Made by a program: the position numbers and the translations under genes. From an uncultured Gemmatimonadales bacterium (GTDB lineage: Bacteria; Gemmatimonadota; Gemmatimonadetes; Longimicrobiales; RSA9), in the NCBI GenBank assembly GCA_963783305.1, contig CAWAMW010000016.1, positions 384,001 to 448,000 on the forward strand: DNA of 64,000 nucleotides. The letters run 5' to 3'. Positions 13,464 through 63,797 of this stretch are shown here, one piece after another. Within the stretch, counting starts at the first letter, position 1, and every line of letters starts with the position of its first letter. The notes under the pieces are model-generated. The model did no database searches. It was not told the DNA's origin and worked only from the letters and a program-made list of their open reading frames with translations.

Positions 13464-13715
13464 GCGGGTGCACGATCCGATCGAGCGCCCGCTTCAGGGG
13501 AGGATGGGGGCGAAGCTCTTGTCGCTACCATCCCAATATTAGTCTACCGGTAGATCGAGCCTCCGTCAAATCAAACTCCAACTGTTCGCCGCCGCGGTTG
13601 TCGCCCCGACCTTCGGGTTGTATTCGGGTTCCTTCGATGCCATCCTCCATCAGAGACTCGACGTATTGGCGGGCCGCTCTTTCGGGCGCGGCCCTTGTAC
13701 TGGACGGGAGGGGCA

Positions 13716-16700
13716 GTGGGAGAGTTCGTGGAGCTTCGAACGCGTTCGGCGTTCTCGTTCGGGGATGGGGCGTGCACCCCTGAGACGCTGGTGCGGGTGG
13801 CGGCGGAACAGGGGCACGGCTCGCTGGGCTTGACGGACCGATCGGACCTGGGGGGGGCGATCCGGTTTGCGCTGGCGGCGCGGCAGGCGGGGATCCGGCC
13901 CGTGGTGGGGGCGGAGCTCGTGGTGGATGGTCATCCGCTGGCGCTGCTGGCGCGGAGCGTCGAGGGGTTCCACTCCCTGGCGAGCCTGGTGACCCTGTCG
14001 CGAATGGGGGATTGGGGGGAGTGGCTGGCGGAGAAGGCGGACCGGGAGGCGGCGTATGCTCGATCATCGAGCCCCGAGCCGCGCGCATCGACCCTGTACC
14101 CCTCTCACTCCGGTTCTCCGTTGCGTTCGGACTCTCCGTCCCCTTCCGCCCTCGCTCCGGGGCTTCATCGGGACCGGGATGGACGGGTGCGGACGCGGGC
14201 GACGGCGGTGACCTCGCGGCGGAAGATCGAGCCGGCGCCGCACACGCCGGGTGCCTTTCTCCGGAACGGCGGGGGGTCGGAGCCCGGGGCACGGACGGGA
14301 CGGGCCCCGGCGCGGGGCCAGCCGGTGCTGACGCTGAGCGACCTGGAGGGTCGGACACAGGGACTGCACCTGCTGACGGGGTCGCCGAGCGGTGAGCTGG
14401 CGTCGCTGGTCCGGTCGGGGCGGCCCGAGGAGGCGCTCTTCCTGCTGTCGCGTCTCCGGGAGCTCTTCCCGGGGCGGCTGGCGGTGGAGGTGCAGCTCCA
14501 CCATGTGTCGGGGGAGGAGTCGGCGCTGGCGGGGGCGCTCATCGAGCTGGCCGAGAAGCAGGGGCTGCCGTGGGTCGTCTCGAATGATCCTCGGTACGTG
14601 GATGGCGGCAGCCGCCTGGTCCACGATCTCCTGACGGCGCACCGGGCGGAGCTGGACGTGGACACGGCGGCGAGCTGGGGTGTGCTGCACCCGAACGGGG
14701 AGTGGCGGCTCAAGTCGCCCGCGGAGATGGCGTCGCTGTGGAAGGGCCGTGAAAAGGGGCTGGAGGAGTCGGCGCGGATCGCGGCAGAGTGCGCCTTCGA
14801 CCTGAAGTGGGTGCGGCCGCCGCTACCGACCTTCCCCGTCCCCGCCGGTCACGATGATGGCTCCTGGCTGCGGGAGCTGACGTTCCGCGGGGCGGAGAAG
14901 CGCTGGGGGGTAGTCGACGACCGCCAGCGGGCGCAGCTGGAGCACGAGATCCGGGTCATCGACACGCTCGGCTTCGCGGGCTTCTTCCTGGTCATGTGGG
15001 ACGCCGTACGGGAGGCCCGCCAGCGCGGGATCCTCTGCCAGGGACGCGGCAGCGCGGCCAACTCGGCGGTGGCCTTCTGCCTGGAGATCACGGCCGTCGA
15101 CCCGGTGCGCCACGGCCTCCTCTTCGAGCGGTTCCTCTCCGAGGTCCGGACCGATGGGATGACGGAGGCGCCGGACATCGACGTGGACTTCGAGATGCAC
15201 CGGCGCGAGGAGATACTCGACTACATGTACACCCGCTACGGCCGTCAGCACGCCGCCATCACGGCCGTCACCCAGGTCTTCCACGCCCCCACAGCCCTCC
15301 AGGACTGCATGCGCGCCCTGGGTTGGCCCGCGGAGACCGCCTTCGCCCTCTCGAAACGGCTCCACGGGCGCGAGCCCAGCCAGGCGGCCGATGAGCTGGA
15401 AGCCGGCATGGCCGATCGCTTCGGGCTCTCCCTCACCACGCCCCGTGTCCGCGCGCTCCTCTCCGCGCTCCGCTCCCTCGACGACGTCCCACGGCTCCGT
15501 TCCACGCACCCCGGCGGCTTCGTCCTCTCCAGCCGCCCCCTCGGCGAGTACCTGCCCATCGAGGAGACCTCCATGGGCCGGACCATCCTCCAGTTCGACA
15601 AGGACGACCTGGACGCCGCCGGTGTGCCCAAGTTCGATTTCCTCGGGCTCGGCGGCCTGACCGTCGTCCACAAGGCCTTCGACGCCATCGAGGCCCGGAC
15701 CGGCCGGAAGCTCGAGCTCTACGACCTCCCCGTCGACGACCCCAAGACGTACGAGATGATCGGCCGGGGCGATACGCTCGGTACCTTCCAGATCGAGTCA
15801 CGGGCCCAGATCCAGTCCATCCTCCAGACTCGTCCCCAGCGACTCTACGACCTCGTGGTCCAGGTCGCGCTCATCCGACCCGGACCCATCCAGGCCCGCT
15901 TCGTCCGCCCCTACACCCGGCGTCGACTGGGGCTCGAGGAGGTGGAGTACGCCGACCCGCGCCTGGAGCCCATCCTCCGGCGTACCTACGGCATTCCCAT
16001 CTTCCAGGAGCAGGCCATGGCCATCTCCATGGCCCTCGGCGGGTTCACCGCGGCCGAGGCCGATGAGCTCCGCCGCGCCATGGGCCACCACCGCAAGCTG
16101 CCGAAGCTCCACGCCGCCATCCAGCGACTCAAGGACCGCATGGGCCGGAATGGCGTCACTCCCGAGGACGCCGAGCGGATCACCGACGACCTCTATTCCT
16201 TCTCCAATTACGGGTTCCCCGAGTCGCACGCCTGGAGCTTTGCCCTCATCGCCTACGCCACCTCCTACCTCAAGGCCCACCACCCCGCCGAGTTCCTCAT
16301 GGCCATCCTCAACGCGTGGCCCATGGGCTTCTATCCCCCCGCCACGCTCGTCCACGAGGCCCGCCGCAACGGTGTGGAAGTTCACCCGCCATGTCTGCGC
16401 GATGGACAGTGGGAGTCCACGCTCGAGCCGCTCACCCCGTCCCGCGAGCCCTGCCCCGTCAACGGGAGCAGGCCGAGCCCGGGGGCGGTGCGCGTGGGGT
16501 GGCAGCACATCCGGGGACTGGGTGAGGACGCGCGCGAGCGTCTTCAGCGGGGGGGCGAAGAAAGCCCCTTCACGAGCGTCGACGACACAGTCCGTCGCGC
16601 CGGCCTCTCCCGCACCGACGCTCTCCACCTCGCCCGCGCGGGCGCCTTCGAGGCGTTCCAGCCCGGGCGCCGGAAGGCCGCATGGGAGGCCCTCCGCGCC

Positions 16701-17141
16701 GCCGGCGACACCCTCCCCCTCGCCCCCGCCAGACACCTCCCGCTGGACCCGCGCGAGGTGAGCGACGAAGAGCTCATCTTCCTCGACTATCTCGCCACCG
16801 GAATCAGCGTGCGGGGCCACCCCATGGAGCACATACGACCCCGCCTCGACTCCCACGGCGTCTGCTCTTCCGCCGGCCTCGCCCAGGCACCTGACGGCCG
16901 TCCCATTCTCGTCGCGGGCCTGGTCGTGGCTCGACAGCATCCCGCCACCGCTCAGGGCACCGTGTTCCTTCTCCTCGAGGACGAGCACGGGTTCCTCAAC
17001 ATCATCGTCCCGCCCCCCGTCCACGACCGCTACCGCGAGATCATCCACCACGCCCCCTTCCTCCTCGTACATGGCCGGTTCGAGCGCGAGGATCGGGTCC
17101 TGAACGTGGTGGCACAGCGGTTCCGGGAGCTGAAACGATGA
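13716..17141 (+). CDS. dnaE2: Error-prone DNA polymerase III alpha (DnaE2/ImuC)
   Basis: PHP-like start (VELRTRSAFSFGDGA), GRGSAANSAV, PDIDVDFE, HPGGFV, FQIESRAQ, YGFPESHA and C-terminal OB fold. GTG start at 13716 follows GGAGG. Confidence 0.93.
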   Translation: MGEFVELRTRSAFSFGDGACTPETLVRVAAEQGHGSLGLTDRSDLGGAIRFALAARQAGIRPVVGAELVVDGHPLALLARSVEGFHSLASLVTLSRMGDWGEWLAEKADREAAYARSSSPEPRASTLYPSHSGSPLRSDSPSPSALAPGLHRDRDGRVRTRATAVTSRRKIEPAPHTPGAFLRNGGGSEPGARTGRAPARGQPVLTLSDLEGRTQGLHLLTGSPSGELASLVRSGRPEEALFLLSRLRELFPGRLAVEVQLHHVSGEESALAGALIELAEKQGLPWVVSNDPRYVDGGSRLVHDLLTAHRAELDVDTAASWGVLHPNGEWRLKSPAEMASLWKGREKGLEESARIAAECAFDLKWVRPPLPTFPVPAGHDDGSWLRELTFRGAEKRWGVVDDRQRAQLEHEIRVIDTLGFAGFFLVMWDAVREARQRGILCQGRGSAANSAVAFCLEITAVDPVRHGLLFERFLSEVRTDGMTEAPDIDVDFEMHRREEILDYMYTRYGRQHAAITAVTQVFHAPTALQDCMRALGWPAETAFALSKRLHGREPSQAADELEAGMADRFGLSLTTPRVRALLSALRSLDDVPRLRSTHPGGFVLSSRPLGEYLPIEETSMGRTILQFDKDDLDAAGVPKFDFLGLGGLTVVHKAFDAIEARTGRKLELYDLPVDDPKTYEMIGRGDTLGTFQIESRAQIQSILQTRPQRLYDLVVQVALIRPGPIQARFVRPYTRRRLGLEEVEYADPRLEPILRRTYGIPIFQEQAMAISMALGGFTAAEADELRRAMGHHRKLPKLHAAIQRLKDRMGRNGVTPEDAERITDDLYSFSNYGFPESHAWSFALIAYATSYLKAHHPAEFLMAILNAWPMGFYPPATLVHEARRNGVEVHPPCLRDGQWESTLEPLTPSREPCPVNGSRPSPGAVRVGWQHIRGLGEDARERLQRGGEESPFTSVDDTVRRAGLSRTDALHLARAGAFEAFQPGRRKAAWEALRAAGDTLPLAPARHLPLDPREVSDEELIFLDYLATGISVRGHPMEHIRPRLDSHGVCSSAGLAQAPDGRPILVAGLVVARQHPATAQGTVFLLLEDEHGFLNIIVPPPVHDRYREIIHHAPFLLVHGRFEREDRVLNVVAQRFRELKR

Positions 17142-28884: not shown

Positions 28885-29082
28885 CTAACGATTGCGGCGG
28901 CGACGGGCCCGGGCGTTGCGACGACGGGCGGCCGCAGCCTTCCGCTTCTTCGCTTCGCTCGGCTTCTCGTAGAACCGCTTCTTCTTCATGTCCTTGAACC
29001 GTCCGGACCTGAGCATCTTCCGACGGAACTTCTTGAGCGCCCAGTCCAGGCGGTCGTTCTCGCTGAGTACGACCTCGACCAT
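28885..29082 (-). CDS. rpsU: 30S ribosomal protein S21
   Basis: ALKKFRRK...RFYEKPS..KKRK..AARRR. Confidence 0.95.
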   Translation of the reverse strand: MVEVVLSENDRLDWALKKFRRKMLRSGRFKDMKKKRFYEKPSEAKKRKAAAARRRNARARRRRNR

Positions 29083-29117: not shown

Positions 29118-29146
29118 AAGATACCGAGAATGGCGGGGCCTGTCAA
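29118..29146 (-). promoter_or_regulatory. Sigma70 promoter of rpsU
   Basis: TTGACA-17 bp-TATCTT on the minus strand. Confidence 0.75.
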
Positions 29147-29194: not shown

Positions 29195-29454
29195 GGGTGG
29201 CTCGGCTGCGCCTCGCAGGGTGGCTCGGCTGTCGCCTCGCAGGGTGGCTCGGCTGCGCCTCGCAGGGTGGCTCGGCTGTCGCCTCGCAGGGTGGCTCGGC
29301 TGCGCCTCGCAGGGTGGCTCGGCTGTCGCCTCGCAGGGTGGCTCGGCTGCGCCTCGCAGGGTGGCTCGGCTGTCGCCTCGCAGGGTGGCTCGGCTGTCGC
29401 CTCGCAGGGTGGCTCGGCTGTCGCCTCGCAGGGTGGCTCGGCTGTCGCCTCGCA
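29195..29454 (-). repeat. Hairpin tandem array 1: 11 units of 23/24 bp
   Basis: GGGTGGCTCGGCTG(T)CGCCTCGCA on the plus strand, order ABABABABBBB. Confidence 0.97.
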
Positions 29455-29546
29455 GGAACACCGCTGGCCGGTCCGGAGAACGCCCGCGGCAATACCCGTC
29501 ACCTCCACCACCTTGGTTCCGCGGGCCCAGGACGAGCCGGCTCCTC

Positions 29547-29786
29547 TGCGAGCGCCAGCGAGCCATACTGCGAGCGCAGCGAGCCACCCTGCGAGCGCAG
29601 CGAGCCACCCTGCGAGCGCCAGCGAGCCACCCTGCGAGCGCCAGCGAGCCACCCTGCGAGCGTCAGCGAGCCACCCTGCGAGCGTCAGCGAGCCACCCTG
29701 CGAGCGTCAGCGAGCCACCCTGCGAGGCGCAGCCGAGCCACCCTGCGAGCGTCAGCGAGCCACCCTGCGAGCGCAGCGAGCCACCC
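29547..29786 (+). repeat. Hairpin tandem array 2: 11 units of 21-23 bp, inverted relative to array 1
   Basis: TGCGAGC-G(C/T/-)CA-GCGAGCCACCC units; unit 29721..29743 is the exact reverse complement of array-1 unit A. Confidence 0.97.
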
Positions 29787-29794
29787 CCGCCTCT

Positions 29795-29823
29795 TTGTCG
29801 CCCCCGCCCCCCACCATTATCTT
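29795..29823 (+). promoter_or_regulatory. Candidate sigma70 promoter of yebC-ruvC-ruvA
   Basis: TTGTCG-17 bp-TATCTT. Confidence 0.6.
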
Positions 29824-29866
29824 GCACCGTTGGTTGCGCGACGTGCAGCGGATCGGACGGAGGCGT

Positions 29867-30616
29867 ATGGCAGGGCATTCCAAGTGGAAGAAGATCAAGC
29901 GGAAGAAGGCGGCGAACGACGCCAAGCGCGGCCAGGCGTTCACGAAGCTGATCCGTGAGATTACGGTGGCGGCGCGGGAGGGCGGGGGCGAGGCCGAGTT
30001 CAACCCGCGTCTGCGGCTCGCCATTGATACGGCGAAAGCGGCGAGCATGCCGCAGGAGAATATCGACCGTGCCGTCCTGAAGGGCACGGGCGATCTCGAG
30101 GGCGTCAACTACGAAGAGATGACGTACGAGGGCTACGGCCCAGGCGGTGTGGCGCTGTACGTGGAGGCGCTCACGGACAACCTGAACCGCACGGTGGCGG
30201 ACCTCCGTCACGCGCTGGAGAAGCACGGCGGGAACCTGGGCCAGAGCGGGTCGGTGGCCTGGCAGTTCGAGCGGAAGGGCCGGATCTACGTGGACGCGGG
30301 TCGCTATGACGAGGACGCGGCCATGATGGCGGCGCTGGAGGCCGGTGCAGAGGATTTCGCGCGGCAGGGGGACGAGTACGAGATCTCGACGGAAGTTGCG
30401 ACCTTCCATTCGGTGCAGGACGGGCTGAAGGAGCAGGGGATCGAGTTCGCCGATGCGGAGCTGTCGATGATCCCGACGGCTACAGTGCCGGTGGAAGGGC
30501 AGGAGGCGCTGCAGCTGTTGCGACTGCTGGACGCGCTGGACGACCTGGATGACGTGCAGCACGTTCACACGAACGCGGATATCGACGAGCGGGCGCTGAG
30601 CGAGGTGGCGGGTTGA
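29867..30616 (+). CDS. yebC: YebC/PmpR family protein
   Basis: MAGHSKW, NPRLRLA, YEGYGPGG, DDVQ.V.TN. Confidence 0.96.
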   Translation: MAGHSKWKKIKRKKAANDAKRGQAFTKLIREITVAAREGGGEAEFNPRLRLAIDTAKAASMPQENIDRAVLKGTGDLEGVNYEEMTYEGYGPGGVALYVEALTDNLNRTVADLRHALEKHGGNLGQSGSVAWQFERKGRIYVDAGRYDEDAAMMAALEAGAEDFARQGDEYEISTEVATFHSVQDGLKEQGIEFADAELSMIPTATVPVEGQEALQLLRLLDALDDLDDVQHVHTNADIDERALSEVAG

Positions 30617-31110
30617 AGGTTCTCGGCGTCGATCCTGGCACGGCAGCGACCGGCTATGGGGTCGTCGTCCGTGAGGGCGTGGGCGCCGCGTCGCTGGTGG
30701 AGTGCGGTGTCATCCGGACGCAGGCCGGGTCGCCGCTGGCCGATCGGCTGCGCGACATCCACGAGGGCCTGGGCGAGGTCCTCTCCCGCCACGCGCCGGA
30801 CGTGGTGGCGGTGGAAGGTGTGTTCTTCGGCAAGAACGTTCGGACCACCGTGCTGCTCGGGCACGCCCGCGGGGTAATCCTGCTCGCCGCGGCCCAGCAG
30901 GGGCTGGAGGTGGCGGAGTACGCGCCCGCGGAGATCAAGAATGCGGTGGTGGGCACGGGTCGGGCGAGCAAGGAGCAGGTGCAGTTCATGGTGAAGAAGC
31001 TGCTGCGGTTGAAGGAGGTGCCCAGCCCGGCGGATGCGGCCGATGGCGTGGCCGTGGCGCTCTGCCACATGAACACATTACGGCTCAGCCGTGCGGTGGC
31101 AGGGTCGTGA
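30613..31110 (+). CDS. ruvC: Holliday junction resolvase RuvC
   Basis: VLGVDPG..TGYG, GHARG, G.G.A.KEQV, DAADG.A.ALCH. Confidence 0.96.
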   Translation: MKVLGVDPGTAATGYGVVVREGVGAASLVECGVIRTQAGSPLADRLRDIHEGLGEVLSRHAPDVVAVEGVFFGKNVRTTVLLGHARGVILLAAAQQGLEVAEYAPAEIKNAVVGTGRASKEQVQFMVKKLLRLKEVPSPADAADGVAVALCHMNTLRLSRAVAGS

Positions 31111-31697
31111 TCAGCCGGATCCGGGGCACGCTGTTGACGCGGGAGCCCGACCGGGTGGAGGTCCTCACCAGCGGCGGTGTCGGCTATGAGCTGGAGATCC
31201 CTCTCTCCGTATTCGAGAAGCTGCCGCGGGCGGGTCAGGAGGTGGAGCTGCTGACCCACCAGGTAGTGCGGGAGGACGACCTCTTGCTATTCGGCTTCCT
31301 TCAGCCATCCGAACGACAGCTCTTCGGTCGACTGCTGGGCGCGTCGGGAGTGGGTCCGCGGCTGGCGCTCGCCATGATGTCGACACTCACTCCCACCGCA
31401 CTCGTGCGCGCCATCACCGACCGGGAGGTGGCGACCCTCGTGCAGGTGCCCGGCGTGGGCAAGAAGACCGCGGAGCGCATTGCGCTGGAGCTCGGCGACA
31501 AGCTCGACGACCTCGCCCTGCCCGCCGGCCCATCGGTGAAGGGGGCCGCCGCCCAGGAGGCGGTCGGCGCCCTGGTCGCGCTCGGCTACGCCAGCGCGGA
31601 TGCCAGCGCCGCCGTTCGCGCGAGCATTGAGGATGATGGCCCTGAGAACGACGCCAAGACGCTCATCCGGAAGGCGCTGGCCCGGGCGGGCAAGTAG
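31107..31697 (+). CDS. ruvA: Holliday junction branch migration protein RuvA
   Basis: MISRIRGTL, GGVGYE, VREDD..LFGF, GVGPRLA, PGVGKKTAERI. Confidence 0.96.
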   Translation: MISRIRGTLLTREPDRVEVLTSGGVGYELEIPLSVFEKLPRAGQEVELLTHQVVREDDLLLFGFLQPSERQLFGRLLGASGVGPRLALAMMSTLTPTALVRAITDREVATLVQVPGVGKKTAERIALELGDKLDDLALPAGPSVKGAAAQEAVGALVALGYASADASAAVRASIEDDGPENDAKTLIRKALARAGK

Positions 31698-31792
31698 CGA
31701 ACCAACGACACCACGACCGGGGGGCGCGACGAAACCCCGCCGGCCGCACTGGCGTATCGGAGCTGGACAGGACTACCCGAACGAATCGAAGC

Positions 31793-32638
31793 GTGGCGAA
31801 GAAGCATAACAAGCCTGCACGAGGCGCCGGCGCGGCGCATGGCCGCTCGGAAACCGCCTCCGCCGCTCCGGCGGCTCCCGAGGGGGCACCGCCGCCCCGG
31901 ACCTCCGCACAGGTGGCGGCGGACTGGGTGAAATCCATCGGCGGCGCGCTCATTCTCTTTCTGATCCTGCGCACGTTCATCCTCCAGACCTTCGTGATCA
32001 CGTCCTCCTCCATGGAGAGGACACTGCTGGTGGGGGACTTCCTGGTCCTGAGCAAGGCGGCCTACGGCGCGCATATCCCCTTCACGGACGCGCGGCTACC
32101 GGGGTACACCGATCTGGACCGGGGGGACGTGGTCGTCTTCCGGCCGCCTCACGACCCGGGCCTCGATGTGGTGAAGCGTGTGATCGGGATGCCCGGGGAC
32201 ACGCTGCACATGGAGGACAAGGCCCTGTACATCAACGGCGTCCAGCAGGACGAGCCGTACACCCGCCATAGTGACGCGGATGGCGACGTGGCGCACCCGT
32301 GGATGCGCTGGCAGTGCGGCGAGAGGGTGGCGTTGAGCCCCGACATCTCGGGGGCGTTCCGGGTACCGAAAGAGGGGTACAGCGGCAGCGGGCCAGGAGC
32401 GGCCTGCAGCCCCACTCGCGATGACTGGGGCCCGCTGGTCGTGCCGGAGGGCCACTACTTCATGATGGGCGACAACCGCGACGACAGCGTCGACTCCCGT
32501 TACTGGGGCTTCCTGGACGGCCAGCGGATCCGGGGCGAAGTGCTCGTGATCTACTACTCGTACGACCCGGAGCTGCTGCGGCCGCTGGCCTTCCTCCGCA
32601 ACGTGCGCGCACAGCGAATCGGCGACCTGGTGCGCTGA
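31793..32638 (+). CDS. lepB: Signal peptidase I
   Basis: S.SME.TL..GD, VKRVIG.PGD, MMGDNRD.S.DSRYWG. Confidence 0.95.
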   Translation: MAKKHNKPARGAGAAHGRSETASAAPAAPEGAPPPRTSAQVAADWVKSIGGALILFLILRTFILQTFVITSSSMERTLLVGDFLVLSKAAYGAHIPFTDARLPGYTDLDRGDVVVFRPPHDPGLDVVKRVIGMPGDTLHMEDKALYINGVQQDEPYTRHSDADGDVAHPWMRWQCGERVALSPDISGAFRVPKEGYSGSGPGAACSPTRDDWGPLVVPEGHYFMMGDNRDDSVDSRYWGFLDGQRIRGEVLVIYYSYDPELLRPLAFLRNVRAQRIGDLVR

Positions 32639-32669
32639 CGCACGCTCGCCGGGCGACGGGATCGGTCCG

Positions 32670-33059
32670 TCAGAACATACGCCGCAGCGTATAGCCGGCG
32701 AAAAAGGCCACGGCCACCGAAGCCAGCGGATGGCGCCGGACCGTGGTCTCCAGGTCTGAGCGCATCTCGTCGATCTCCCGCGTCCGGACGTAGTCGGCGG
32801 CATGCTGGATCCCCTCGGCCGCGTTGTCGGTCAGCGGGCGCGTTGGACCGAGGAACCGGTTCCGCGCGGCGGCCCGCTCTCCCAGCTCGCGGACCCGGAC
32901 CGCGGCCTCATCGAGCCGGCCACCCGCAGCGCGCCGGGCGCGGTCGAGGGCGCTGCGGTCGGAGGGAAGCGTCCCGGGATCGCCCATGGCGGGCTCCCGG
33001 CGAGTCTCGCTCTCGATCGGATCGGGGATCTCGTGATCGTGGTTCGGATGCTCGGTCAT
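32670..33059 (-). CDS. YqjD/ElaB (DUF883)-like tail-anchored protein
   Basis: AADYVR...LE..VRRHPLASVAVAFFAGY.L C-terminal anchor. Confidence 0.7.
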   Translation of the reverse strand: MTEHPNHDHEIPDPIESETRREPAMGDPGTLPSDRSALDRARRAAGGRLDEAAVRVRELGERAAARNRFLGPTRPLTDNAAEGIQHAADYVRTREIDEMRSDLETTVRRHPLASVAVAFFAGYTLRRMF

Positions 33060-33556
33060 GCCCGCTCCTTCTTCAGCCCGTGCTTGAAATCGTCCATCTC
33101 GCGCTCCGCCCATTCCTTGTCCGCGCGGAGCGACCCGGTCGTCTCCGTAGGGGCGAAGCCCCCCTTGCGGAGGTCCCGCGCCCCTTTCCATGCGGCGAGC
33201 GCGCCGATGAGGAACAGGATGCCGCCCGTGATGAGGGTGCCGAGCCAGTAGGACCCGAGCAGGGCCCCCAGCCCGAGGGCCAGGGCCAACACCAGGCACA
33301 GCCCGCCCACGGCGATGATCGCCACGCCGGCTCCGATCCACGCGCTGTCTACGACCACCCGCTTGGCGGTGCGTACGGCCTCCGCCTTCGCCAGCTGGAT
33401 CTCCTGCTGGACGAGCGTGCGGGTGTCATCCGCAAGCTCCCGCAGGAGCGGGATGATCCCCATCCCATCGCCCGCGCCGTTCGCCGGCGGGAGCTGGTGG
33501 TCGGGGTCCAACCGGCGCTGCCGGTCGGCCGCTTCTCTGCTGTCGGTGACTGCCAT
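33056..33556 (-). CDS. Phage-holin-like (holin-X/YhjD) membrane protein
   Basis: L.ELADD..TLVQQEIQLAKAE, two TMs, P.ET..SL..D.EW. Confidence 0.85.
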   Translation of the reverse strand: MAVTDSREAADRQRRLDPDHQLPPANGAGDGMGIIPLLRELADDTRTLVQQEIQLAKAEAVRTAKRVVVDSAWIGAGVAIIAVGGLCLVLALALGLGALLGSYWLGTLITGGILFLIGALAAWKGARDLRKGGFAPTETTGSLRADKEWAEREMDDFKHGLKKERA

Positions 33557-33603
33557 GTCCGTCTTCCTCTACCTCGTCCTCCGCCCGTGACGACTCGGAG
33601 ACG

Positions 33604-33620
33604 TGCAATGGATGTGCCGG
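33604..33620 (-). promoter_or_regulatory. Candidate sigma54 promoter (holin-X/DUF883 operon)
   Basis: CCGGCACATCCATTGCA, close to the TGGCAC-N5-TTGC consensus. Confidence 0.65.
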
Positions 33621-33629
33621 GCGTCGGCG

Positions 33630-33646
33630 CCGGCGGAGTTCTTGCA
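33630..33646 (+). promoter_or_regulatory. Candidate divergent sigma54 promoter (DUF3618 gene)
   Basis: CCGGCGGAGTTCTTGCA. Confidence 0.5.
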
Positions 33647-33707
33647 CCCTACGCATGCGGCACGATAGGATCGAGAGAGTAGCCCATACCGACCCTGGCG
33701 ATCAACC

Positions 33708-34154
33708 ATGTCGAAACCCGACGAAACCAAGCTGCCGGCAACGCCGACCACGGAGCGCGCCCTTCCGCCGGAGGGCGGGACGACTTCCACGTCCCGGACG
33801 GCACCCGTGGCCGTGCCCGCTCCAGCGTCGCTGGAATCCGACCGGAAGGTGGAGCCCGCGCGAGCGACCCCGGAGCGGTCCCCGACCCGGGCGCATCCCG
33901 GTGGCAACGGCCGCCCGGGCGACCCCGCGGAGCTGCGGCGGGACATCGCGGAGACCCGGGCTCGGATGTCCAGCACGCTGGACGTGCTGGAGACGCGGGT
34001 CGCTCAGGAGCGCGCGTCGCTGGAGCGGAAGAAGACGGAGATGATGGAGATGGCGACGCTCAAGCCCCTGCGGGAGAAGCTCTCCCGGGAGCCGTGGCGA
34101 TCGATGGCCATCGCCTTCGTGGCGGGCTACGTCGTGGCCGCCATCCGGGACTGA
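33708..34154 (+). CDS. DUF3618-like protein with C-terminal membrane anchor
   Basis: PAELRRDIAETRARMSSTLD.L; PWRSMAIAFVAGY. Confidence 0.75.
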   Translation: MSKPDETKLPATPTTERALPPEGGTTSTSRTAPVAVPAPASLESDRKVEPARATPERSPTRAHPGGNGRPGDPAELRRDIAETRARMSSTLDVLETRVAQERASLERKKTEMMEMATLKPLREKLSREPWRSMAIAFVAGYVVAAIRD

Positions 34155-34178
34155 CCGAGCGGACCTTTGAGGGCGGGT

Positions 34179-34682
34179 CTAGTCCTCGTGGTCGCGTCCG
34201 AGCATCAGCCAGCCCAGCAGGAGCAACGGCAGCAGCACCAGCGTGGCGAGCAGATAGGGGCGGTCGAGGAGGGTCGTAGGGACCACCGCCGAGCTGAACG
34301 ACAGCGAGCCCGCGTCCCCCACTTCCACCGTGAACTCCCAGTCCCCCGACTCCTCCACATCGAATTTGGCCGCCTGAAACAGCTTGTTGGTGGCTTCCGC
34401 CCGCGTCGCACGCTTCCGGACGGGCTCCGCGGTCGCGTCCCCCTCGAGCTCGATCGGCCGCGCCTCCACCATTACCCATGGCGTCAGCACCGCACCCGCC
34501 GAATCCTGTACCATTACGCTCACGTCCAGCTCCCCCGTCCGCAGCGGCGTGGGGCTGGAGTAGATCGTCACCGTGTACGGCCCCAGCACGGCGTTGGAGA
34601 TCCGGACCGTCCCACCATTCCCGCGCAGCGGCGGCGCGACCAGCAGGACGAGCAGCAGCAGGACGGAAAAGGCGCGCGTCAT
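34179..34682 (-). CDS. YtkA/FixH-like secreted protein with C-terminal TM
   Basis: Signal peptide; GPY.VT...SPTPLR.G..DVSV.VQD, ATNKL..AA, G.W...V.V. Confidence 0.6.
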   Translation of the reverse strand: MTRAFSVLLLLVLLVAPPLRGNGGTVRISNAVLGPYTVTIYSSPTPLRTGELDVSVMVQDSAGAVLTPWVMVEARPIELEGDATAEPVRKRATRAEATNKLFQAAKFDVEESGDWEFTVEVGDAGSLSFSSAVVPTTLLDRPYLLATLVLLPLLLLGWLMLGRDHED

Positions 34683-34692
34683 GAGCCGCGTC

Positions 34693-35583
34693 TCACGTGC
34701 CGCTTCCCGCCGTCACCGGACGAGTGCCCCGTCCGTGCACCACCTCCGGGATCCACACATCGCCCTCGTCCTCGCGCATCATCATGAGCACCAGCACGAG
34801 GAGCGGGATGATGTAGAGGAGCCCTCCAATGACCCACATGAGGAGGCCCCCGAGCTGCTGGTCCCCGAGGGGTGAGAGGCCCCAGAGGCTGGGAGAGTCC
34901 AGGAACGTGCGGTAGAAGGGCTCGGAGCTCAGCGTGAGCGCCGCCCCGAGCACAAACCCGGCGATCTTTGCGGGGAAGATGTAGAGGATCCCGGCGCCGT
35001 AGCTCAGGCGGCGGCTGCCTCCGCTCGGGTGGATGACCGGCCACCAGAAGAGGAGCGCCATGCCCAGGAACATGGCGTGCTCCAGGTCGTGGATCCAGTT
35101 GCGGCCCTGAGCCGCGTCATACAGCGGCGGGTAGTGCCAGATGAAGAGGACGAGGATGTAGATCGTCAGCGCCACGCCCGCTCGGGTGAGGAAATGGAAG
35201 ACCCGGTGGACAGGGTTCCGCTCGTGGAACATGCGCCCGAGTCGCCGCCGCGCGCCGCGGTCGAATGCCCAGAGTGTGGGGAGGAGCGGGGCCCCCAGCC
35301 AGATGAGGGGCGCGGCCACCATGATCAGCAGCAGATGCTGCGCCATGTGCATGAAGAAGAAGATCGAGTCGAACGTGCCGATGGGAGAGAGCAGCGCGAC
35401 CGCCACGGCTGCGAGCCCCGCCCCGAAGCACCACGCCCGCCACGTCCTCAGGATCCTGCCGCCACGCCCCCGACGTCGCAGCCGGCGCCAGCCGCGGGCG
35501 TAGAGCCCCCCTGCCACGAGAAGGCCGATAATGACCGTCGGCTCGAACTCCCACGACAACAGGAACGCCTGAAGATCACCCAC
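34693..35583 (-). CDS. ctaG: Cytochrome c oxidase assembly factor, Caa3_CtaG family
   Basis: HMAQHLLL...AAPL, WH.P.LYD.A, H.LEH, DQQLGGLLMW. Confidence 0.88.
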   Translation of the reverse strand: MGDLQAFLLSWEFEPTVIIGLLVAGGLYARGWRRLRRRGRGGRILRTWRAWCFGAGLAAVAVALLSPIGTFDSIFFFMHMAQHLLLIMVAAPLIWLGAPLLPTLWAFDRGARRRLGRMFHERNPVHRVFHFLTRAGVALTIYILVLFIWHYPPLYDAAQGRNWIHDLEHAMFLGMALLFWWPVIHPSGGSRRLSYGAGILYIFPAKIAGFVLGAALTLSSEPFYRTFLDSPSLWGLSPLGDQQLGGLLMWVIGGLLYIIPLLVLVLMMMREDEGDVWIPEVVHGRGTRPVTAGSGT

Positions 35584-37171
35584 CGTCCTGCCCCCGATGC
35601 TCGCTGTGAGGGTCTATCTCCATCGGCATATCCATCCCCGGCATCTCCATCCCCGGCATATCCATTCCCGGCATCTCCATCCCTGGCATCTCCAGCGTGC
35701 CTCTCATGTCCATCGGCTGCGCCATGATCCAGCCGCCCAGCAGCCCCAGCCCCACCGCCAGTGTCGCCCACGGCACGAACGCGAGCCGGGCCGGCCGACG
35801 CCCCTGGAACGTCGCGCGGGAAATGTAATGGAGGAGGATCAGCGACCCCAGCACTCCGGCCTCCAGCACCACCAGCTCGAGCGGGAGCAGCCACCCGGCA
35901 GGGACGATGGCCGCCATGGTCCAGTCGGGCGCGCCGCCGGCGATCCCCACGTCGATGGCGACCCTGTGGAGGGTCGGCACGAGGTTGAGCCCGGCCGCGA
36001 GGAAGTGGAAGGCGTAGTGGGCGAGCCACATGCCGAACCCGAGCGGCACCAGCCCGAAGCCCATCCGGAGGAGGACCTCCCGGCCGGGTAGGGAGGTGCG
36101 GGCGAGTCGGCGGCTGGCGGCCGTCGTCAGGAAGAGGAGGAGCCCGGGAACGACCCCCAGGGCCACGACGAGGAAGACCGTCCACGTCACCCGCTCGCTC
36201 CCGATGCCGAGTGTTGCCCCGAGTCCCGCCTGGAGTCGCACCATGGGCCCGATCATCCCGGCCGCGTTCACGAACGCTCCGAACACCACGACCATGGCCA
36301 GCGCCAGGAGGTCGGGGCGGTCGGTGAATCGACCGATGCCCGAGCGCATCGGGTCCCCGACGAGCTCCGCTCCCGGCCAGCGAGCGACGATCCCCACATT
36401 GTCGTAGGGGCACGCCTGCACGCAGTCGAGACAGAAGGTGCAGTCCATGTTCCCGGCCTTCCGGGGCTGGAAGAGCCAGAGCTCGCACCCGTTCTGCACG
36501 AGCCGCGGCTCCCCCGTCCGCGGATCGATCTCGTGCCGGCCGGCGATGCAGTCCTTGGTCTCGCACGCCTCGCATACCGCCACGTCCCGAACGCGCACCT
36601 CCCCCGGCGAGGCGAGAGATTGGGTGAAATTGAACGCGCCGATCGGGCATACGTGCTTGCAGAACGCGGCGCCCTGGAACACCCCGTCGATGGCGAATGC
36701 CGCCGTGAAGTAGGCGACCACGATCCACGCGGTGAGCCACGGGCTGTTCCACAGATCGAACGCCTCATAGGCCCAGAAGAAGAGGACGAGGAGTCCCAGC
36801 GACAGCCACTTCGTCTTCAGCCATGCCGGCCATGAGCGGTCGGCGGGGAACAGCTTCCTGGCCAGGCGGCGCGGGAGCATGAACGGACACGCCATGCAGA
36901 ACAGGTTCCCCACCAGCAGCAGCGCCAGCACGACGAGACCGCGCCACTGCACCCACGGCGCGACCCCGGCCGCGTTCTGCGGTGCCAGGTTGGGGCCGAA
37001 CAGGCCGTCGGCGATGATGATGGCCGACAGCAGCAGGAGCGGGACCTGGAGGGTGGTGCGTGCGTGCTTCCAGCGAAGGAATCGGCCGAGGACGGGCGCG
37101 CGAGTCAGGTCCCCGCGGGGCGCGGGTGTCGCGTGGTAGATCGGCAGTTCACGTCGGGCGGTGCTGGGCAT
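35576..37171 (-). CDS. Membrane polyferredoxin (4Fe-4S; NapH/CcoG-like) with Met-rich C-terminal tail
   Basis: FCMACP, FCKHVCP, CEACETKDC, CTFCLDCVQACP; many TMs; MPGM(E/D) repeats. Confidence 0.85.
   Translation of the reverse strand: MPSTARRELPIYHATPAPRGDLTRAPVLGRFLRWKHARTTLQVPLLLLSAIIIADGLFGPNLAPQNAAGVAPWVQWRGLVVLALLLVGNLFCMACPFMLPRRLARKLFPADRSWPAWLKTKWLSLGLLVLFFWAYEAFDLWNSPWLTAWIVVAYFTAAFAIDGVFQGAAFCKHVCPIGAFNFTQSLASPGEVRVRDVAVCEACETKDCIAGRHEIDPRTGEPRLVQNGCELWLFQPRKAGNMDCTFCLDCVQACPYDNVGIVARWPGAELVGDPMRSGIGRFTDRPDLLALAMVVVFGAFVNAAGMIGPMVRLQAGLGATLGIGSERVTWTVFLVVALGVVPGLLLFLTTAASRRLARTSLPGREVLLRMGFGLVPLGFGMWLAHYAFHFLAAGLNLVPTLHRVAIDVGIAGGAPDWTMAAIVPAGWLLPLELVVLEAGVLGSLILLHYISRATFQGRRPARLAFVPWATLAVGLGLLGGWIMAQPMDMRGTLEMPGMEMPGMDMPGMEMPGMDMPMEIDPHSEHRGQDGG
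35625..35694. repeat. 15-bp coding tandem repeat (~4.7 copies) encoding MPGM(E/D)
   Basis: GGCAT(A/C)TCCATYCCY repeated. Confidence 0.9.
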
Positions 37172-37258
37172 CAGGCCCGGAAGGTAGCGCTCCGAGGGGT
37201 CGGCGTGAAGGCGGTGGCGGCGCTTGAGGCGGCGTGGTCATGGGCGGGCCGAACGCTG

Positions 37259-38689
37259 TCACCAGACGCGGTGGGTCACCACGGTGGTGCGTCCGACCTT
37301 CACGGTCACGGGGCCCAGCGTTGCCGCGCGGGCACCGTCCACTTCGATCTCCAGGTCGTGCGATCCCGCCGGGAGCCGGAGCCGGACCATGGCGACGGAG
37401 CCCGGAAGCAGGTGCCACGACCGGGTGTCGGCGCGCTCCGTGAGCGCGGTGCCCAGGTTCGCCAGCCATCCCACGACGTGCCCCGCCGTCTCGTCCTTTT
37501 CGCTCACCGCGCTTTTCGCCCCCGCCGTAAACGCCAGCTTGGAAGCGGCGCGGACAACGGTTCGCGCGAGCATCGCGCCCCGCTCCCCATCGAAATCGCG
37601 GCGCACGGCGTCCGCCACATCGAGGCGGGCCGTCGCGCCGGCGCCGCTGTCCGCCGCTGCACCGGCCGGGCCACCCTTCCGGACGTGCACGGCGCCGCCG
37701 GGCGGCGAGTCCTGGTAGAGCACGGGCCAGGAGATCCGGAGCAGGTAGGGGTCGGAGTCGTCGTCGTCGTTCCGGTTGCACCCGTAGCGGCAGTCCCACG
37801 GGTCCAGCCGCGTCTCGCTGCGCCAGCCGTAGTCGTGGTAGTACGGGCTCCGCCCACCGCTGCTCGCGGCGAGGAGGATTCGGGCTGCAGCCTCCGCGGC
37901 GGCTGCGGTCTTCTCCGCCGCGTCGCCTTCCGCCAGCTTGCTCACCTGCCACGCCGGAAGAACCACCACCACCGATTGCTCCACCCGGTGCGGCACGAAC
38001 CCTCGCTCCACGAGCACCAGCACCTCACCCGTCTCGTCCGCCGCATCGGAGCCGGGGACCGGAGCCGGGATTCCCGCTCGACGGTAGGCCACGTCCGCCG
38101 CGTCCGCATACCCGGCGGCCTCGAATACGGCGGCGTCGAAGAGGTGGAAGAATCGCGCATCGCTGGAGACCGTGGCGCCGTCCCCGGCCTCCCCGAGGCG
38201 ATCCAGGAGCGCCTCGAGCCGGCGGGCCTCGACGGCGGCGGCGTCGTTGTGGCCGGCCTGCAGAAACCCCACGGCCGCGGTGTAATGGATCATGAGCCGC
38301 TCGGTCCGGCTCGGCGTGTAGGCCAGGGCCCGATCCGAAGTGATCATGCTCAGGACCTGCTGCGACACGCTGACCGTGACGCGATCCTCCGCCAGGTAGG
38401 AGGCGAGGTCGAGGAGGTGACAGCTTTCGGTGTACGCCCCCGCGTAGCGGCCGGCCGTGGCTGCATAAAGGAGGCGGAGCAGGTCGTCCTGGGGGATCGC
38501 GCGCTGCCCCTCCAGCACCGAACCGTACGCCTTGTCGGGCTCGTAGGCGAGCTCCCGCCGGAGCGCGTCCTCGTCCGCCGGCAGTCCGCTTGGCGCCAGG
38601 TCGTAGCCGTCGAATACGGCGGCACAGCCGGACAGCGACAGGGCCGCGGCGAGAACCGCGACCCCGACCGCACCCTTCATCCGCAACAT
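37259..38689 (-). CDS. COG3014-family lipoprotein
   Basis: Lipobox SLSG-C; Y.P...E...IHY, A.VEARR, VLVLVE.GFVP, TERADTRSW.LLP. Confidence 0.8.
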   Translation of the reverse strand: MLRMKGAVGVAVLAAALSLSGCAAVFDGYDLAPSGLPADEDALRRELAYEPDKAYGSVLEGQRAIPQDDLLRLLYAATAGRYAGAYTESCHLLDLASYLAEDRVTVSVSQQVLSMITSDRALAYTPSRTERLMIHYTAAVGFLQAGHNDAAAVEARRLEALLDRLGEAGDGATVSSDARFFHLFDAAVFEAAGYADAADVAYRRAGIPAPVPGSDAADETGEVLVLVERGFVPHRVEQSVVVVLPAWQVSKLAEGDAAEKTAAAAEAAARILLAASSGGRSPYYHDYGWRSETRLDPWDCRYGCNRNDDDDSDPYLLRISWPVLYQDSPPGGAVHVRKGGPAGAAADSGAGATARLDVADAVRRDFDGERGAMLARTVVRAASKLAFTAGAKSAVSEKDETAGHVVGWLANLGTALTERADTRSWHLLPGSVAMVRLRLPAGSHDLEIEVDGARAATLGPVTVKVGRTTVVTHRVW

Positions 38690-38699
38690 GGTCGCTCCG

Positions 38700-39497
38700 T
38701 CAGCGTCGATCGAGCACCACGATCCGTTCCTTCGCATACGCGATGGCGTCAGCCATCTTGGCATACGCATCGCCATACGCCTCGATCTTTTCAAGCTCCA
38801 GCTGGTGCAGGAAGCGCTTGTACTGGATCACCGCCTCGATCGGGCGGAGCTGCTTGTCCAGGGTGGTCGCCACGCGGTACGCGATCACCGGGTCGCTCGG
38901 CTTCAGCACCTGCGCCCGGTCGTAGCGATTGAGCGCCATGTCGAACTCGCCCCGCGCCACGTAGTCGTCGCCCTCGCGGAGCAGCATCTCGGCCATGGCC
39001 ACAGCCCGGCCTTCCGTGGTGGCATCGGCGGGCGAGCTCACCACGCGCACGCCCTGCGCTTCGCCGTAGCTGTAGCTCTGCACACGGCCGTCCGCCACCT
39101 GTACCATCACGACCTGACCCACGGCGTCGGTTGGAGCGCGCTGCGGGCTTCGGGGCACCAGGATCGACGCGCCGCCCGAGCGTCTCACGGTCCAGGCATC
39201 GTACGTGGTCCGCGTGGCCGCCAACACCTGCGTCTCGTTCATGCCCAGCGCCAGCTCGCCGCGCGTCACCGCCGCGCAGATCTCACCGGCGCACGTGGCC
39301 ATTGCCTCGGCGGCGATGGAGTCCCGGCTCATCCGGTTGATCACCTGATCACCCGCCGCCACCACCGCGCCCGCGGGGGCCTGCGCCTCCGGGACGCGAT
39401 CGTCGTTGGTCAGGATCGGCTCCTGGTGGATCCGCTTGGGCGCGCACCCGGCCGCCAGCGCCGCCAGTGCCACGATTCCCACTCTGCTCGCGTTCAT
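38700..39497 (-). CDS. TPR-containing lipoprotein
   Basis: Lipobox LAAG-C; C-terminal TPR-like helices. Confidence 0.75.
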   Translation of the reverse strand: MNASRVGIVALAALAAGCAPKRIHQEPILTNDDRVPEAQAPAGAVVAAGDQVINRMSRDSIAAEAMATCAGEICAAVTRGELALGMNETQVLAATRTTYDAWTVRRSGGASILVPRSPQRAPTDAVGQVVMVQVADGRVQSYSYGEAQGVRVVSSPADATTEGRAVAMAEMLLREGDDYVARGEFDMALNRYDRAQVLKPSDPVIAYRVATTLDKQLRPIEAVIQYKRFLHQLELEKIEAYGDAYAKMADAIAYAKERIVVLDRR

Positions 39498-39506
39498 GTC
39501 GTCTCC

Positions 39507-40118
39507 TTACCAGCCGATCCGGGGCCGCTCGATGTACTTCTTGATCTTGTGCTGTCCCGCCCAGACCTTGACGTTGCTCTCCAGGTCCGTGAGCGTCGCG
39601 TCCACCTGGTAGAACACCACCTTCTCCCGGCCCTCCTCGTCCTCGATAGCCGTGATCTCCCCCTGGAACATGTAGTTCGCACCCAGCTCGTAGGCCATCC
39701 GCGCCCGGGTCCCCGCCCGGGCGTTGTCCTGCTGGTCCGTCCGCTCGTCCCGGATCTCCGACCGCTCCTCAGGACTCGCCACCATCGTCACTGCGCCCGA
39801 ATTGATCATCGCCCGCTCCAGGTCCCCGATGAACGCGTTGACCGGGATGTGCTCCATGGTCCGGTTCCGGAACGTGCCCACGATCACCGCCGGGGCCTCG
39901 CCGCCATGCGCCGCTGCGTGCCGCGTCACCCACGGCGCGTTCAGCGACTGGTCGATCAACTCGTTCGCCACCAGCCGCGAATCGGTGTCGTTCCAGCGGC
40001 CAGAGAGGTCGGTAACACTGGTGGGGTCAATGCGCGAGACCTGCTTGGCGCAGCCCCCCAACATGAGGGTGAGGACGGCGAGCGTCATTGCCCCCGTCAC
40101 TCTGCTTGAACGGTACAT
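39507..40118 (-). CDS. Penicillin-binding protein activator LpoB-like lipoprotein
   Basis: Lipobox [26 protein letters not shown]...E.N..VW.G...IKK. Confidence 0.85.
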
Positions 40119-40152
40119 TGGTTGTGCCTCCGTGATGGGTCCGTGCGGGTTG

Positions 40153-40177
40153 TACACGGGGGGGTGGGGGAAAGTTC
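40153..40177 (-). promoter_or_regulatory. Candidate ECF-sigma promoter of the lpoB operon
   Basis: GAACT-N16-TGTA on the minus strand, same pattern as 18751..18775. Confidence 0.35.
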
Positions 40178-40186
40178 GGGGGGGGG

Positions 40187-40403
40187 GGGTGGCTCGCCGC
40201 TTCGCACTCGCAGGGTGGCTCGCCTTCGGCTCGCAGGGTGGCTCGCGCTTCGCACTCGCAGGGTGGCTCGCCTTCGGCTCGCAGGGTGGCTCGCGCTTCG
40301 CACTCGCAGGGTGGCTCGCCTTCGGCTCGCAGGGTGGCTCGCGCTTCGCACTCGCAGGGTGGCTCGCCTTCGGCTCGCAGGGTGCTCGCGCTTCGCGCTC
40401 GCA
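40187..40403 (-). repeat. Hairpin tandem array 3: 9 units alternating ~25/23 bp
   Basis: GGGTGGCTCG-CCTTCGG-CTCGCA alternating with GGGTGGCTCG-CGCTTCGCA-CTCGCA; shares the TCGCAGGGTGGCTCG core with arrays 1 and 2. Confidence 0.97.
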
Positions 40404-40454
40404 GGACCGAAGACTGGCCGAAGACGTTGGCGGCGCGTTAGGTTGGCAGCAGCT

Positions 40455-41509
40455 ATGAACCAACCTGAGATTACGACCCCGGAAGCCCTCACGGAGGAGA
40501 TCGAGGCGGAGCTGTCGCTCCGGCCTCAGCGGCTGGCCGAGTTCATCGGGCAGACGAAGGTCAAGGAGTCGCTGCGGATCGCCATTGACGCGGCGAAGGG
40601 GCGGGGGGAGCCGCTGGACCATACGCTCTTTCACGGGCCGCCGGGGCTGGGGAAGACGACACTGGCGATGCTGATGTCGCGGGAGCTGGGGGTGCAGATC
40701 CGGACGACCTCGGGGCCGGTGCTGGAGAAGCCGGCGGACCTGGTGGGGCTGCTGACCAACCTGGAGGAGGGGGACATCCTCTTCATCGACGAGATCCATC
40801 GTCTGCGGCCGATCATCGAGGAGTTCCTGTACCCGGCCATGGAGGACTACCGGATCGACATCCGGCTCTCGGAGGGGCCGAAGGCGCAGACCATCACCAT
40901 GCCGGTGGAGCGGTTCACGCTGGTGGGGGCCACGACCCGGTTCGGACTCCTGACGCCGCCAATGCGCGCCCGCTTCGGGATCATCCAGAGACTCAACTAC
41001 TACGACGCGGCCGAGCTGATGGACATCGTGGTGCGGAGCGCGGAGATCCTGGAGGTGGGGACGACGGCGGAGGGCGCTGAGGAGATCGCGAAACGGAGCC
41101 GCGGCACCCCCCGGGTGGCGAACCGCCTGCTGCGCCGCGTCCGGGACTTCGCGCAGGTGCGTGCCGACGGCGTCATAACGGGGGCCGTGGCCGATGACGC
41201 ACTCCGGATGCTGGACGTCGACGAGTACGGTCTGGACGAGATGGACGCCCGGATCATCAAGACGCTGATCGAGAACTTCGAGGGCGGCCCGGCGGGGCTG
41301 AACACCCTGGCGGTCGCGGTCGGTGAGGACCCGGGCACCATCGAGGAGGTGTACGAGCCGTTCCTCATCCAGAACGGGTTCCTCATGCGCACGCCGCGCG
41401 GCCGGATGGCAACGAAGCGGGCGTTCAAGCGATTCGGCTACGCGGTGCCCCGGGACCTGGGCGACCGGGGTCAGATCCGGCTCTTCGACGAGGGTGCCTC
41501 CGACCCGGC

Positions 41510-41513
<4 letters not shown>
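40455..41513 (+). CDS. ruvB: Holliday junction branch migration helicase RuvB
   Basis: [44 protein letters not shown]. Confidence 0.97.
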
Positions 41514-63699: not shown

Positions 63700-63777
63700 C
63701 GCACCCGGCCCGCCGCCGGACGCATTCGCGCTCCGGGGGCGGGCCCCTGGCCTCCGGCCGCACCGACGAGCCCCCCC

Positions 63778-63797
63778 GCGAGGCCGCCAGGCCGAGC
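63778..63797 (+). repeat. Solo copy of the array hairpin motif
   Basis: GC-GA-GGCC-GCCA-GGCC-GA-GC followed by CCCA, 7 bp before a TTGCCG -35-like box. Confidence 0.55.

Follow-up and report, generated by a model that had tools for sequence, protein, structure and literature searches.

What kind of element keeps a tiny hairpin, rather than a sequence, in tandem copies between genes? The question is raised by three intergenic arrays in a 64,000-nucleotide stretch (hereafter the window) of an uncultured Gemmatimonadales bacterium (GenBank assembly GCA_963783305.1, contig CAWAMW010000016.1, positions 384,001 to 448,000). An earlier description of these letters, the original prediction, saw in them a strand-specific element selected for its fold, either a new family akin to the repetitive extragenic palindromes (REP) and bacterial interspersed mosaic elements (BIME) or a protein-binding array, with a Y1/HUH nuclease gene as the partner to look for. 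What it missed is the actual partner, a gene of the four-helix-bundle family PF05635, and that arrays 1 and 2 are a single outward-pointing cassette lacking its gene. The arrays of the window are, with high confidence, gene-less copies of the outward arms that bracket PF05635 genes.

Cassettes with outward-pointing arms

The arrays and their common linker, as first described, are real. Tandem Repeats Finder bounds the arrays at 29195-29456, 29546-29786 and 40187-40405, and the 15-base linker occurs within them in 26 exact copies and one with two mismatches, compared with a mean of 0.6 in shuffles of the window. Read on the C-rich strand, they comprise 31 units. Array 1 (29195-29456, minus strand) has 11 units of the form TGC-GA-GGC-(GCA/GACA)-GCC-GA-GC with the linker CACCCT, and array 2 (29546-29786, plus strand) has another 11, with stems that are mostly GC-(GCA/GCCA/GTCA)-GC. 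These two are mutually inverted, share a perfect inverted match of 39 bases and form the left and right arms of a core of about 90 bases (29457-29545), the hairpin strand of each pointing outward. Array 3 (40187-40405, minus strand) is a single arm of nine units with GAA loops, in which GCC/GGC stems alternate with GTGC/GCGC stems. A stray two-mismatch match to the linker at 63767-63781 of the window belongs to no array and is probably due to chance.

The further copies that the original prediction called for are abundant in the genome containing the window (G000; G, L and C numbers label genomes, loci and contigs). The exact linker is present there in 79 copies in 15 clusters, and a descriptor that demands at least three GNA or GNNA mini-hairpins spaced within 45 bases returns 71 clusters, 68 of them intergenic, at 58 loci (genes being called by a simple custom caller), so that the family consists of dispersed extragenic palindromes in the sense applied to REP and BIME. 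Four of five control loop classes yield 0-3 clusters; the fifth is taken up below. Wherever cluster loci are paired, they point outward (10 of 10). Three of these pairs enclose a PF05635 gene (G000:C2:93670, C15:137397 and C16:294071) and seven, including arrays 1 and 2 of the window, enclose 64-229 bases without a gene remnant, while single arms account for 47 of the 58 loci. Orientation relative to the neighbouring genes is mixed, every arrangement being seen. A convergent stop codon is found no more than 60 bases from 28 of the 68 clusters, which are probably transcribed; TAG stops beside arms (15 of 28, versus 34% in controls, p 0.025) were one of several looks and carry no weight. GC skew along the genome is noisy, and the reads of RNA run X1 derive from other organisms.

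All six PF05635 genes of G000 sit, by eye, within tandem repeats, made of hairpin units in four cases and of 6-8-mers in two. Four of the six adjoin hairpin clusters, to be compared with 58 cluster loci in about 1025 gaps (p 1.4e-4), and the hairpin-armed cassettes thus number four, including one near C11:29845. The two arms of one cassette are often built from different units. Gene-less clusters can be traced by cassette-specific 9-mers: with a twofold lead over the next cassette required, 46 of 61 were assigned to one of the four cassettes (21, 13, 8 and 4). Of the 9-mers in arrays 1 and 2, 53% and 61%, respectively, are specific to the cassette at C2:93670. Array 3 also matches this cassette best, at 0.23 versus 0.13, which is below the twofold rule. 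No PF05635 gene lies between the window arrays, and their core at 29457-29545 holds neither a four-helix-bundle remnant nor the upstream box described below (best score 2.9); arrays 1 and 2 look like an empty cassette.

A predicted structure of a clade-A protein of the family is a four-helix bundle (mean predicted local distance difference test, pLDDT, 91) that comes closest to Xcc0516 (2gsc; Z 18.4, rmsd 1.4, 112 aligned residues), followed by BT_0352 and Avd (Z 13.3-14.5; Avd 4dwl Z 13.3).

Across relatives, it is the hairpins and not the linker that recur. The exact linker is found in none of 40 relatives, apart from one spurious match in a contig search. A looser pattern, run against a reversed control on 251 genomes of the order, is in excess in G000 (110 versus 14), G105 (155 versus 23), G005 (56 versus 15), G004 (29 versus 10) and G127 (31 versus 3), the last four having the same hairpins with other linkers; an excess in G041 was dismissed as noise. 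Sister genomes provide a contrast, in that G105 and G127 have both the clade-B gene and the arrays and their congeners G067 (6 versus 12) and G093 (4 versus 4) have neither. PF05635 itself is present in 65 of 73 genomes of the family.

A search by protein alone then found outward hairpin arms at six of seven new loci scoring at least 58 bits to the C2 protein (L183, L184, L186, L187, L188 and L190), with simple arms at the seventh (L189), and outward hairpin arms also at L218. All three new core clade-A loci (L156, L157 and L216) have them too, and eight outer clade-A loci carry simple 6-7-mer arms. At L187 and L190, few units are alike, but they retain a stem based on GC, a loop that is mostly GNA and a pyrimidine-rich linker of 4-6 bases. 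The word TCGA occurs densely in the flanks of clade A, whether hairpin or simple (15 of 17), but in none of eight clade-B flanks and in fewer than 10 of 77 others; many of the clade-A loci in this count are orthologous. In the L069 arms of G105, the opposite strand also carries mini-hairpins, formed by the linker with a GCA loop, so that GNA hairpins are present on both strands (9 and 5 inward hairpins).

Several other repeats were noted alongside. A second, larger subfamily in G000 is a composite element of 60-110 bases with multiple hairpins and GATCGACCCC linkers, present in near-identical copies at about 21 loci (e.g. C2:341276, C7:365961 and C16:319224); it matches the arms at C11:29845. 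Dispersed gene-less arrays of 6-8-mers also seem to belong to the two four-helix-bundle genes of G000 with simple arms (5 and about 38 regular-expression matches); such repeats flank L106 and L107 and seem to recur at C2:310716, C2:627584, C15:405325 and other sites of G000. One site in many family members (L116, L117, L118, L140, L142, L143 and L147) is occupied by a four-helix-bundle gene that is old and conserved and has short arms; it follows a peptidase-like gene and precedes one whose product, by eye, looks ComEA-like.

Beyond the family, a strict pattern matched 8 of 300 other genomes of the phylum, and outside the family none of the examined loci lies near a four-helix-bundle gene. Viral contigs yielded no clade-A relatives and four pattern matches without a four-helix-bundle gene. 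In another family of the class, repeated tRNA 3' ends stand directly behind tRNA genes (L299:1360-1680 in G314, L300:900-1750 in G349); the T-loop sequence of each copy is interrupted by a branched GNA/GA-GA hairpin element, and the examined loci hold no four-helix-bundle gene.

A fold kept on one strand

The fold is conserved in the repeat family. Units excised by their GCGA...GAGC anchors, and thus blind to pairing, gave 163 distinct inner segments from nine genomes, whose mean perfect stem of 2.71 pairs exceeds the 1.50 +/- 0.07 (maximum 1.72) obtained across 2000 half-swaps, a type of control that overstates independence because units are related by descent and copying. The second stem pair is G-C in 96, C-G in 37, A-T in three and T-A in one, and stem variation is largely one of length. 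In a test blind to the type of mismatch, GA/GA accounts for 172 of 188 internal loops of 2x2 bases in G000 clusters (TC/TC for 2) and for 295 of about 313 in other genomes, compared with 55 of 2042 outside clusters. With stems that beat the half-swap control and one strand carrying both the GNA loop and the tandem GA, the proposal of a strand-specific family kept for its fold holds.

Two details of that proposal need revision. The tandem GA pairs are not obligatory, as 152 cluster hairpins lack any internal loop. That loops are always GNA or GNNA is true of the window, where all 31 units carry GCA, GAA, GACA, GCCA or GTCA closed by C-G, but genome-wide such loops make up 126 of 157 stem-forming copies, the remaining 31 (about 20%) including AAA, CCA, AAC and ATA. 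The inner stems of the window units are perfect in 27 cases, contain a T.G wobble in three (GTGC/GCGC) and are bulged in one, and every one of the 31 has the mini-hairpin DNA core GC-GNA/GNNA-GC. Rejection of a CRISPR was justified: in place of a constant repeat with unique spacers, the arrays have variable parts that recur within and between arrays and genomes. Searched against Rfam, they match no family at the gathering score, three sub-threshold matches being due to chance.

Nearest-neighbour folding with ViennaRNA assigns no special stability to either strand (z +0.75 to +3.14 as DNA, -1.06 to +1.49 as RNA). Standard thermodynamic models miss the stability of these mini-hairpins, however, according to the accessible text of PMC13037366, in which GCGNAGC/GCGNNAGC DNA melts at about 70-76 C and an RNA octamer at 39 C, GNA is the only one of 64 triloops to confer such stability, and the DNA withstands exonuclease.

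Could such arrays arise without any function? Neutral repeats might stall replication through their hairpins and amplify by slippage, with template switching repairing the stems and so mimicking covariation, and the gene would merely lie among them. Units do alternate and homogenise within each array, some have a fully paired GA/TC (12, versus 158 with GA/GA), and orthologous gaps in relatives carry unrelated repeat types or nothing. Yet repair of this kind should remove the GA/GA mismatch, which prevails on the GNA strand, and neutrality leaves unexplained the ten out of ten outward pairs, the cassette-specific subfamilies and the old arms at L187 and L190, where units mostly differ and the fold is kept. 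We therefore consider this explanation improbable.

Of 143 unpaired stretches between hairpins (the spine), 82 measure 5-7 bases, and simple, hairpin-free arms have a period of 6-7 in 61 of 88. Together with the TCGA words in clade-A flanks of either arm type, these lengths suggest that a hairpin arm is built of a short repeated word, each unit of which carries an inserted mini-hairpin, and that the protein may read the words.

The upstream box, neighbouring genes and a possible role

A motif of the approximate form TG(G/T/A)C-N7-GC(C/T)AT(G/T)-N5-GCC precedes 84 of 106 four-helix-bundle regions (1 in shuffles). Trained solely on these regions, the box also gives high-ranking matches upstream of genes for SSB (2), RecQ-type helicases (2), RecX, RecN, a ComM-type ATPase, a UPF0102 protein, a type II/IV secretion (pilus-type) ATPase, DUF559 (2), PDDEXK_3 and one Y1 protein, the names coming from Pfam matches for 20 genes, three of which had none. 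ComM and YraN are the names we presume for the ATPase and UPF0102 genes. Examples are found upstream of L286 (C16:644062), L277 (C17:250121) and L278, with L316-L332 in relatives. Scores reach 16-23.5 before the ComM-type gene in five of five other genomes and at least 12 for nine of 12 ssb genes, compared with none of 55 yebC/ruvB controls at 10 or above. The box apparently marks an undescribed regulon for DNA uptake and recombination in this bacterial family.

Because the box is common to DNA-uptake and recombination genes and the loops are stable as DNA, the protein likely binds the repeats as single-stranded DNA (ssDNA). A protein-binding array, one of the two options originally offered, is plausible on these grounds. 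In the mechanism we propose, each unit would fold into a GNA mini-hairpin, exposing a spine of 5-7-base words, and the cassette protein would read the spine words of its own arms. Made, as the box suggests, during DNA uptake or repair, when ssDNA is abundant, the protein might bind its arms in this form and so promote their protection or help host enzymes to recombine them into the chromosome. Slippage and unequal exchange would then lengthen and renew the arms, and a cassette that lost its gene would persist as paired or single arrays such as those in the window. As a whole, this use of the arrays as ssDNA binding tracks is tentative, and we would place it just short of an even chance. A bolder version is speculative and on balance rather unlikely: PF05635 proteins would be sequence-specific ssDNA readers in transposase-free selfish cassettes that hijack natural transformation, in which a ring-shaped protein, expressed with the uptake regulon, reads its own word spine on incoming DNA, GNA/tandem-GA hairpins shield the strand, and recombination into the chromosome thereby favours the cassette as well as the gene-less copies derived from it.

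The arms could instead act as RNA, as in the intervening sequences (IVS) of 23S rRNA: a read-through transcript would pair them into a duplex cut by RNase III, releasing or controlling the gene, and the small hairpins would be secondary. The Coxiella IVS, with an S23p open reading frame, heptamer repeats and excision by RNase III, provides a precedent in the accessible part of its description (PMC4990558); moreover, the arms are mutually complementary and the 28 of 68 clusters near convergent stops are probably transcribed. This alternative is nevertheless unlikely. GNA triloops are far less stable in RNA than in DNA (PMC13037366, accessible text), so that DNA-specific mini-hairpins argue for an ssDNA ligand rather than an RNA duplex, the ligand assumed on the model of intervening sequences in rRNA; the pair in the window is set between divergent promoter-like sites, upstream of both; 47 of 58 loci are single arms; and the two arms of a cassette often differ in their units.

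Several observations weigh against cassettes with DNA-binding arms. At the PF05635 loci first examined, hairpins stand on both sides in 7 of 49, most having simple arms; these seven represent two well-supported subclades and one single gene, and two of them had been chosen for their arrays. The counts are not independent, because the genomes that show the trait are closely related and several of the loci in clades A and B are orthologous. Dispersed arrays best match the clade-B arms of their own genome in just four of eight genomes, and in G000, 15 of 61 gene-less clusters, array 3 among them, have no assigned cassette. The control loop class GN1-2C yields 34 clusters. An hmmsearch of gap translations found a gene remnant in none of the seven gene-less cores, and the upstream box is present on none of the 47 single arms. 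The box itself is weak at lexA and at recA (at least 10 in one of four relatives) and, being near-palindromic, also scores when reversed (27 versus 16 genes above 16). Target-site duplication was not established, and no catalytic partner was found, with no match to the reverse transcriptase family PF00078 in a genome that is 96% complete. Finally, hairpin cassettes keep their arm-to-arm complementarity (median local score 35, versus 18.5 in other cassettes), which suits an RNA duplex equally well; the same scores refuted the idea that hairpin arms have lost their mutual pairing.

All neighbours of the window arrays are protein-coding genes, and the arrays have no rRNA gene location. Arrays 1 and 2 separate the divergent rpsU (S21; 28885-29082, minus strand, TIGR00030), the left neighbour of array 1, from yebC/pmpR (29867-30616, plus strand), which leads yebC-ruvC-ruvA. 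Array 3 lies between a gene for an LpoB-like lipoprotein (39507-40088, minus strand; TIGR02722 at 88 bits, below the curated cut-off of 110.6) and ruvB (40455-41513, plus strand), which leads ruvB-queA-tgt-yajC. Between array 1 and rpsU is a sigma-70-like promoter (TTGACA-17-TATCTT, 29118-29146, minus strand), and just beyond array 2 a promoter-like site for yebC (TTGTCG-17-TATCTT, 29795-29823, plus strand) was identified by eye, the scanner making no call. Just beyond array 3, upstream of the lpoB-like gene, is a conserved element GAACTT-N16-GTGTAC (40152-40177, minus strand), similar words occurring in orthologous gaps; we take it to be a likely alternative-sigma promoter. The longer open frames at 13695-17141 (1148 residues), 5522-10354 (1610) and 58285-61149 (954) of the window were also noted.

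Do the arrays serve rpsU, yebC-ruvCA and lpoB or ruvB locally, whether as a UP element, a priming site or a hairpin promoter of the N4 type? They end 8-50 bases from the promoter-like sites, mini-hairpins are known in N4 promoters and priming sites (PMC13037366, accessible text), and arrays recur in the same gaps of relatives. The promoter-like sites, however, are located outside the arrays, which therefore lie upstream of sites resembling ordinary promoters, and this does not support an N4-like role. Of the ten rpsU-yebC gaps with both genes in view, three have hairpin arrays, four simple repeats and three nothing evident; among 20 lpoB-ruvB gaps, five have hairpin arrays (one by eye) and one has inverted hexamers. 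With so many relatives having short empty gaps or other repeats and orientation to the neighbouring genes being mixed, a local cis-element is most unlikely. The gap before ruvB is informative in another respect: in G016, a frameshifted four-helix-bundle gene lies directly upstream of ruvB, with another left neighbour and with outward arms that each contain a hairpin. Because of this cassette and the arrays at the same place in relatives, array 3 is likely to be the relic of a cassette upstream of ruvB. Upstream of yebC in G003, a different unit of about 150 bases stands in three tandem copies (L036), with partial copies at L037 and L038 and single related copies in G004 and G006.

Ring structures have been solved for the very common family PF05635 (S23p), whose function is not known outside diversity-generating retroelements (DGRs). 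Four gene-plus-arm pairs with distinct words in one genome offer a ready cross-specificity binding test, and the upstream box names the condition in which to look for expression. If the proposal were true, this would be a third selfish pair of gene and repeat beside RAYT/REP and Ssn/SRM, and one without a nuclease.

Comparison with known systems

The suspected link to HUH enzymes of the REP-associated tyrosine transposase (RAYT) or IS200 type finds no support. Neither the two Y1 genes of G000 nor its single GIY-YIG match has arrays, and in relatives arrays are present at none of 20 loci (17 Y1 of 69 Y1 matches, and three short GIY-YIG); a Y1/HUH gene flanked by the motif is thus absent from the Y1 loci covered. 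A REP/BIME-like family mobilised in trans by a RAYT or an Ssn-type GIY-YIG nuclease would fit the intergenic, dispersed copies in all gene orientations, the box upstream of both G000 Y1 genes and one G004 unit that starts with CGTCATTGC. In addition to the 0 of 20 loci, however, the window arrays contain no GTAG tag and no SRM match (definitions after PMC3733652 and PMC11893778), G127 has arrays without a Y1 match, G067 has a Y1 match without array excess, and the sole GIY-YIG match of G000 lies in a 681-residue frame. Mobilisation in trans is accordingly very unlikely. The two Y1 (RAYT-like) genes at L001:1500-1860 and L002:1500-1770, with frames of about 340 residues, have no flanking palindromes and share a further common word, ATATGGAA(T/A); genes like them occur in 37 of 73 family genomes.

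The literature covered, with subscription papers outside its scope, gave no account of this box or of repeat-armed four-helix-bundle genes outside rRNA. Several described systems nonetheless share individual traits. As in RAYT/REP and Ssn/SRM/CGTC, in the accessible descriptions (PMC3733652, PMC11893778), a small gene is flanked by hairpins of its own family, which has many intergenic copies without the gene, and each subfamily has one gene; unlike there, the partner here has no known nuclease domain, GTAG/CGTC tags are lacking, and the arrays run head to tail with a tandem GA pair. Gut-1 (RF01706) likewise alternates small hairpins with a short word and is described, in the accessible part of PMC2864571, as a non-coding RNA without mention of a partner gene, but its covariance model does not match the arrays, and both phylum and word differ. 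The unit cores correspond to the mini-hairpin DNA sequences GCGNAGC/GCGNNAGC or extensions of them, whereas the natural examples in the accessible text of PMC13037366 occur singly, in N4 promoters or in phage or plasmid origins, rather than as arrays on a chromosome.

PF05635 has been linked to Avd (PMC10053308 and PMC8632793, in part), and DGR target hairpins combine variable GC stems with GRNA loops (PMC3240598, in part). The likeness thus extends from an Avd-like fold to GC-rich, sequence-variable stems with a strand-specific G..A loop, but G000 has no reverse transcriptase, and the hairpins here are tandem and flank the gene on both sides.

The closest known system is the S23p-bearing intervening sequence of 23S rRNA, as in Coxiella and Leptospira (PMC4990558, in part), in which a gene for a PF05635 protein also lies between inverted arms that contain repeats. 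Three loci of G000 have the gene between its arms in this way, and the arms are inverted tandem repeats. In contrast to the intervening sequences, however, the cassettes described here lie outside rRNA, their arms consist of mini-hairpin units of 21-30 bases instead of heptamers, the gene has its own upstream box, and there are dozens of gene-less copies. The arrays are not HUH-linked; among four-helix-bundle cassettes with repeat arms, they represent a new structural form.

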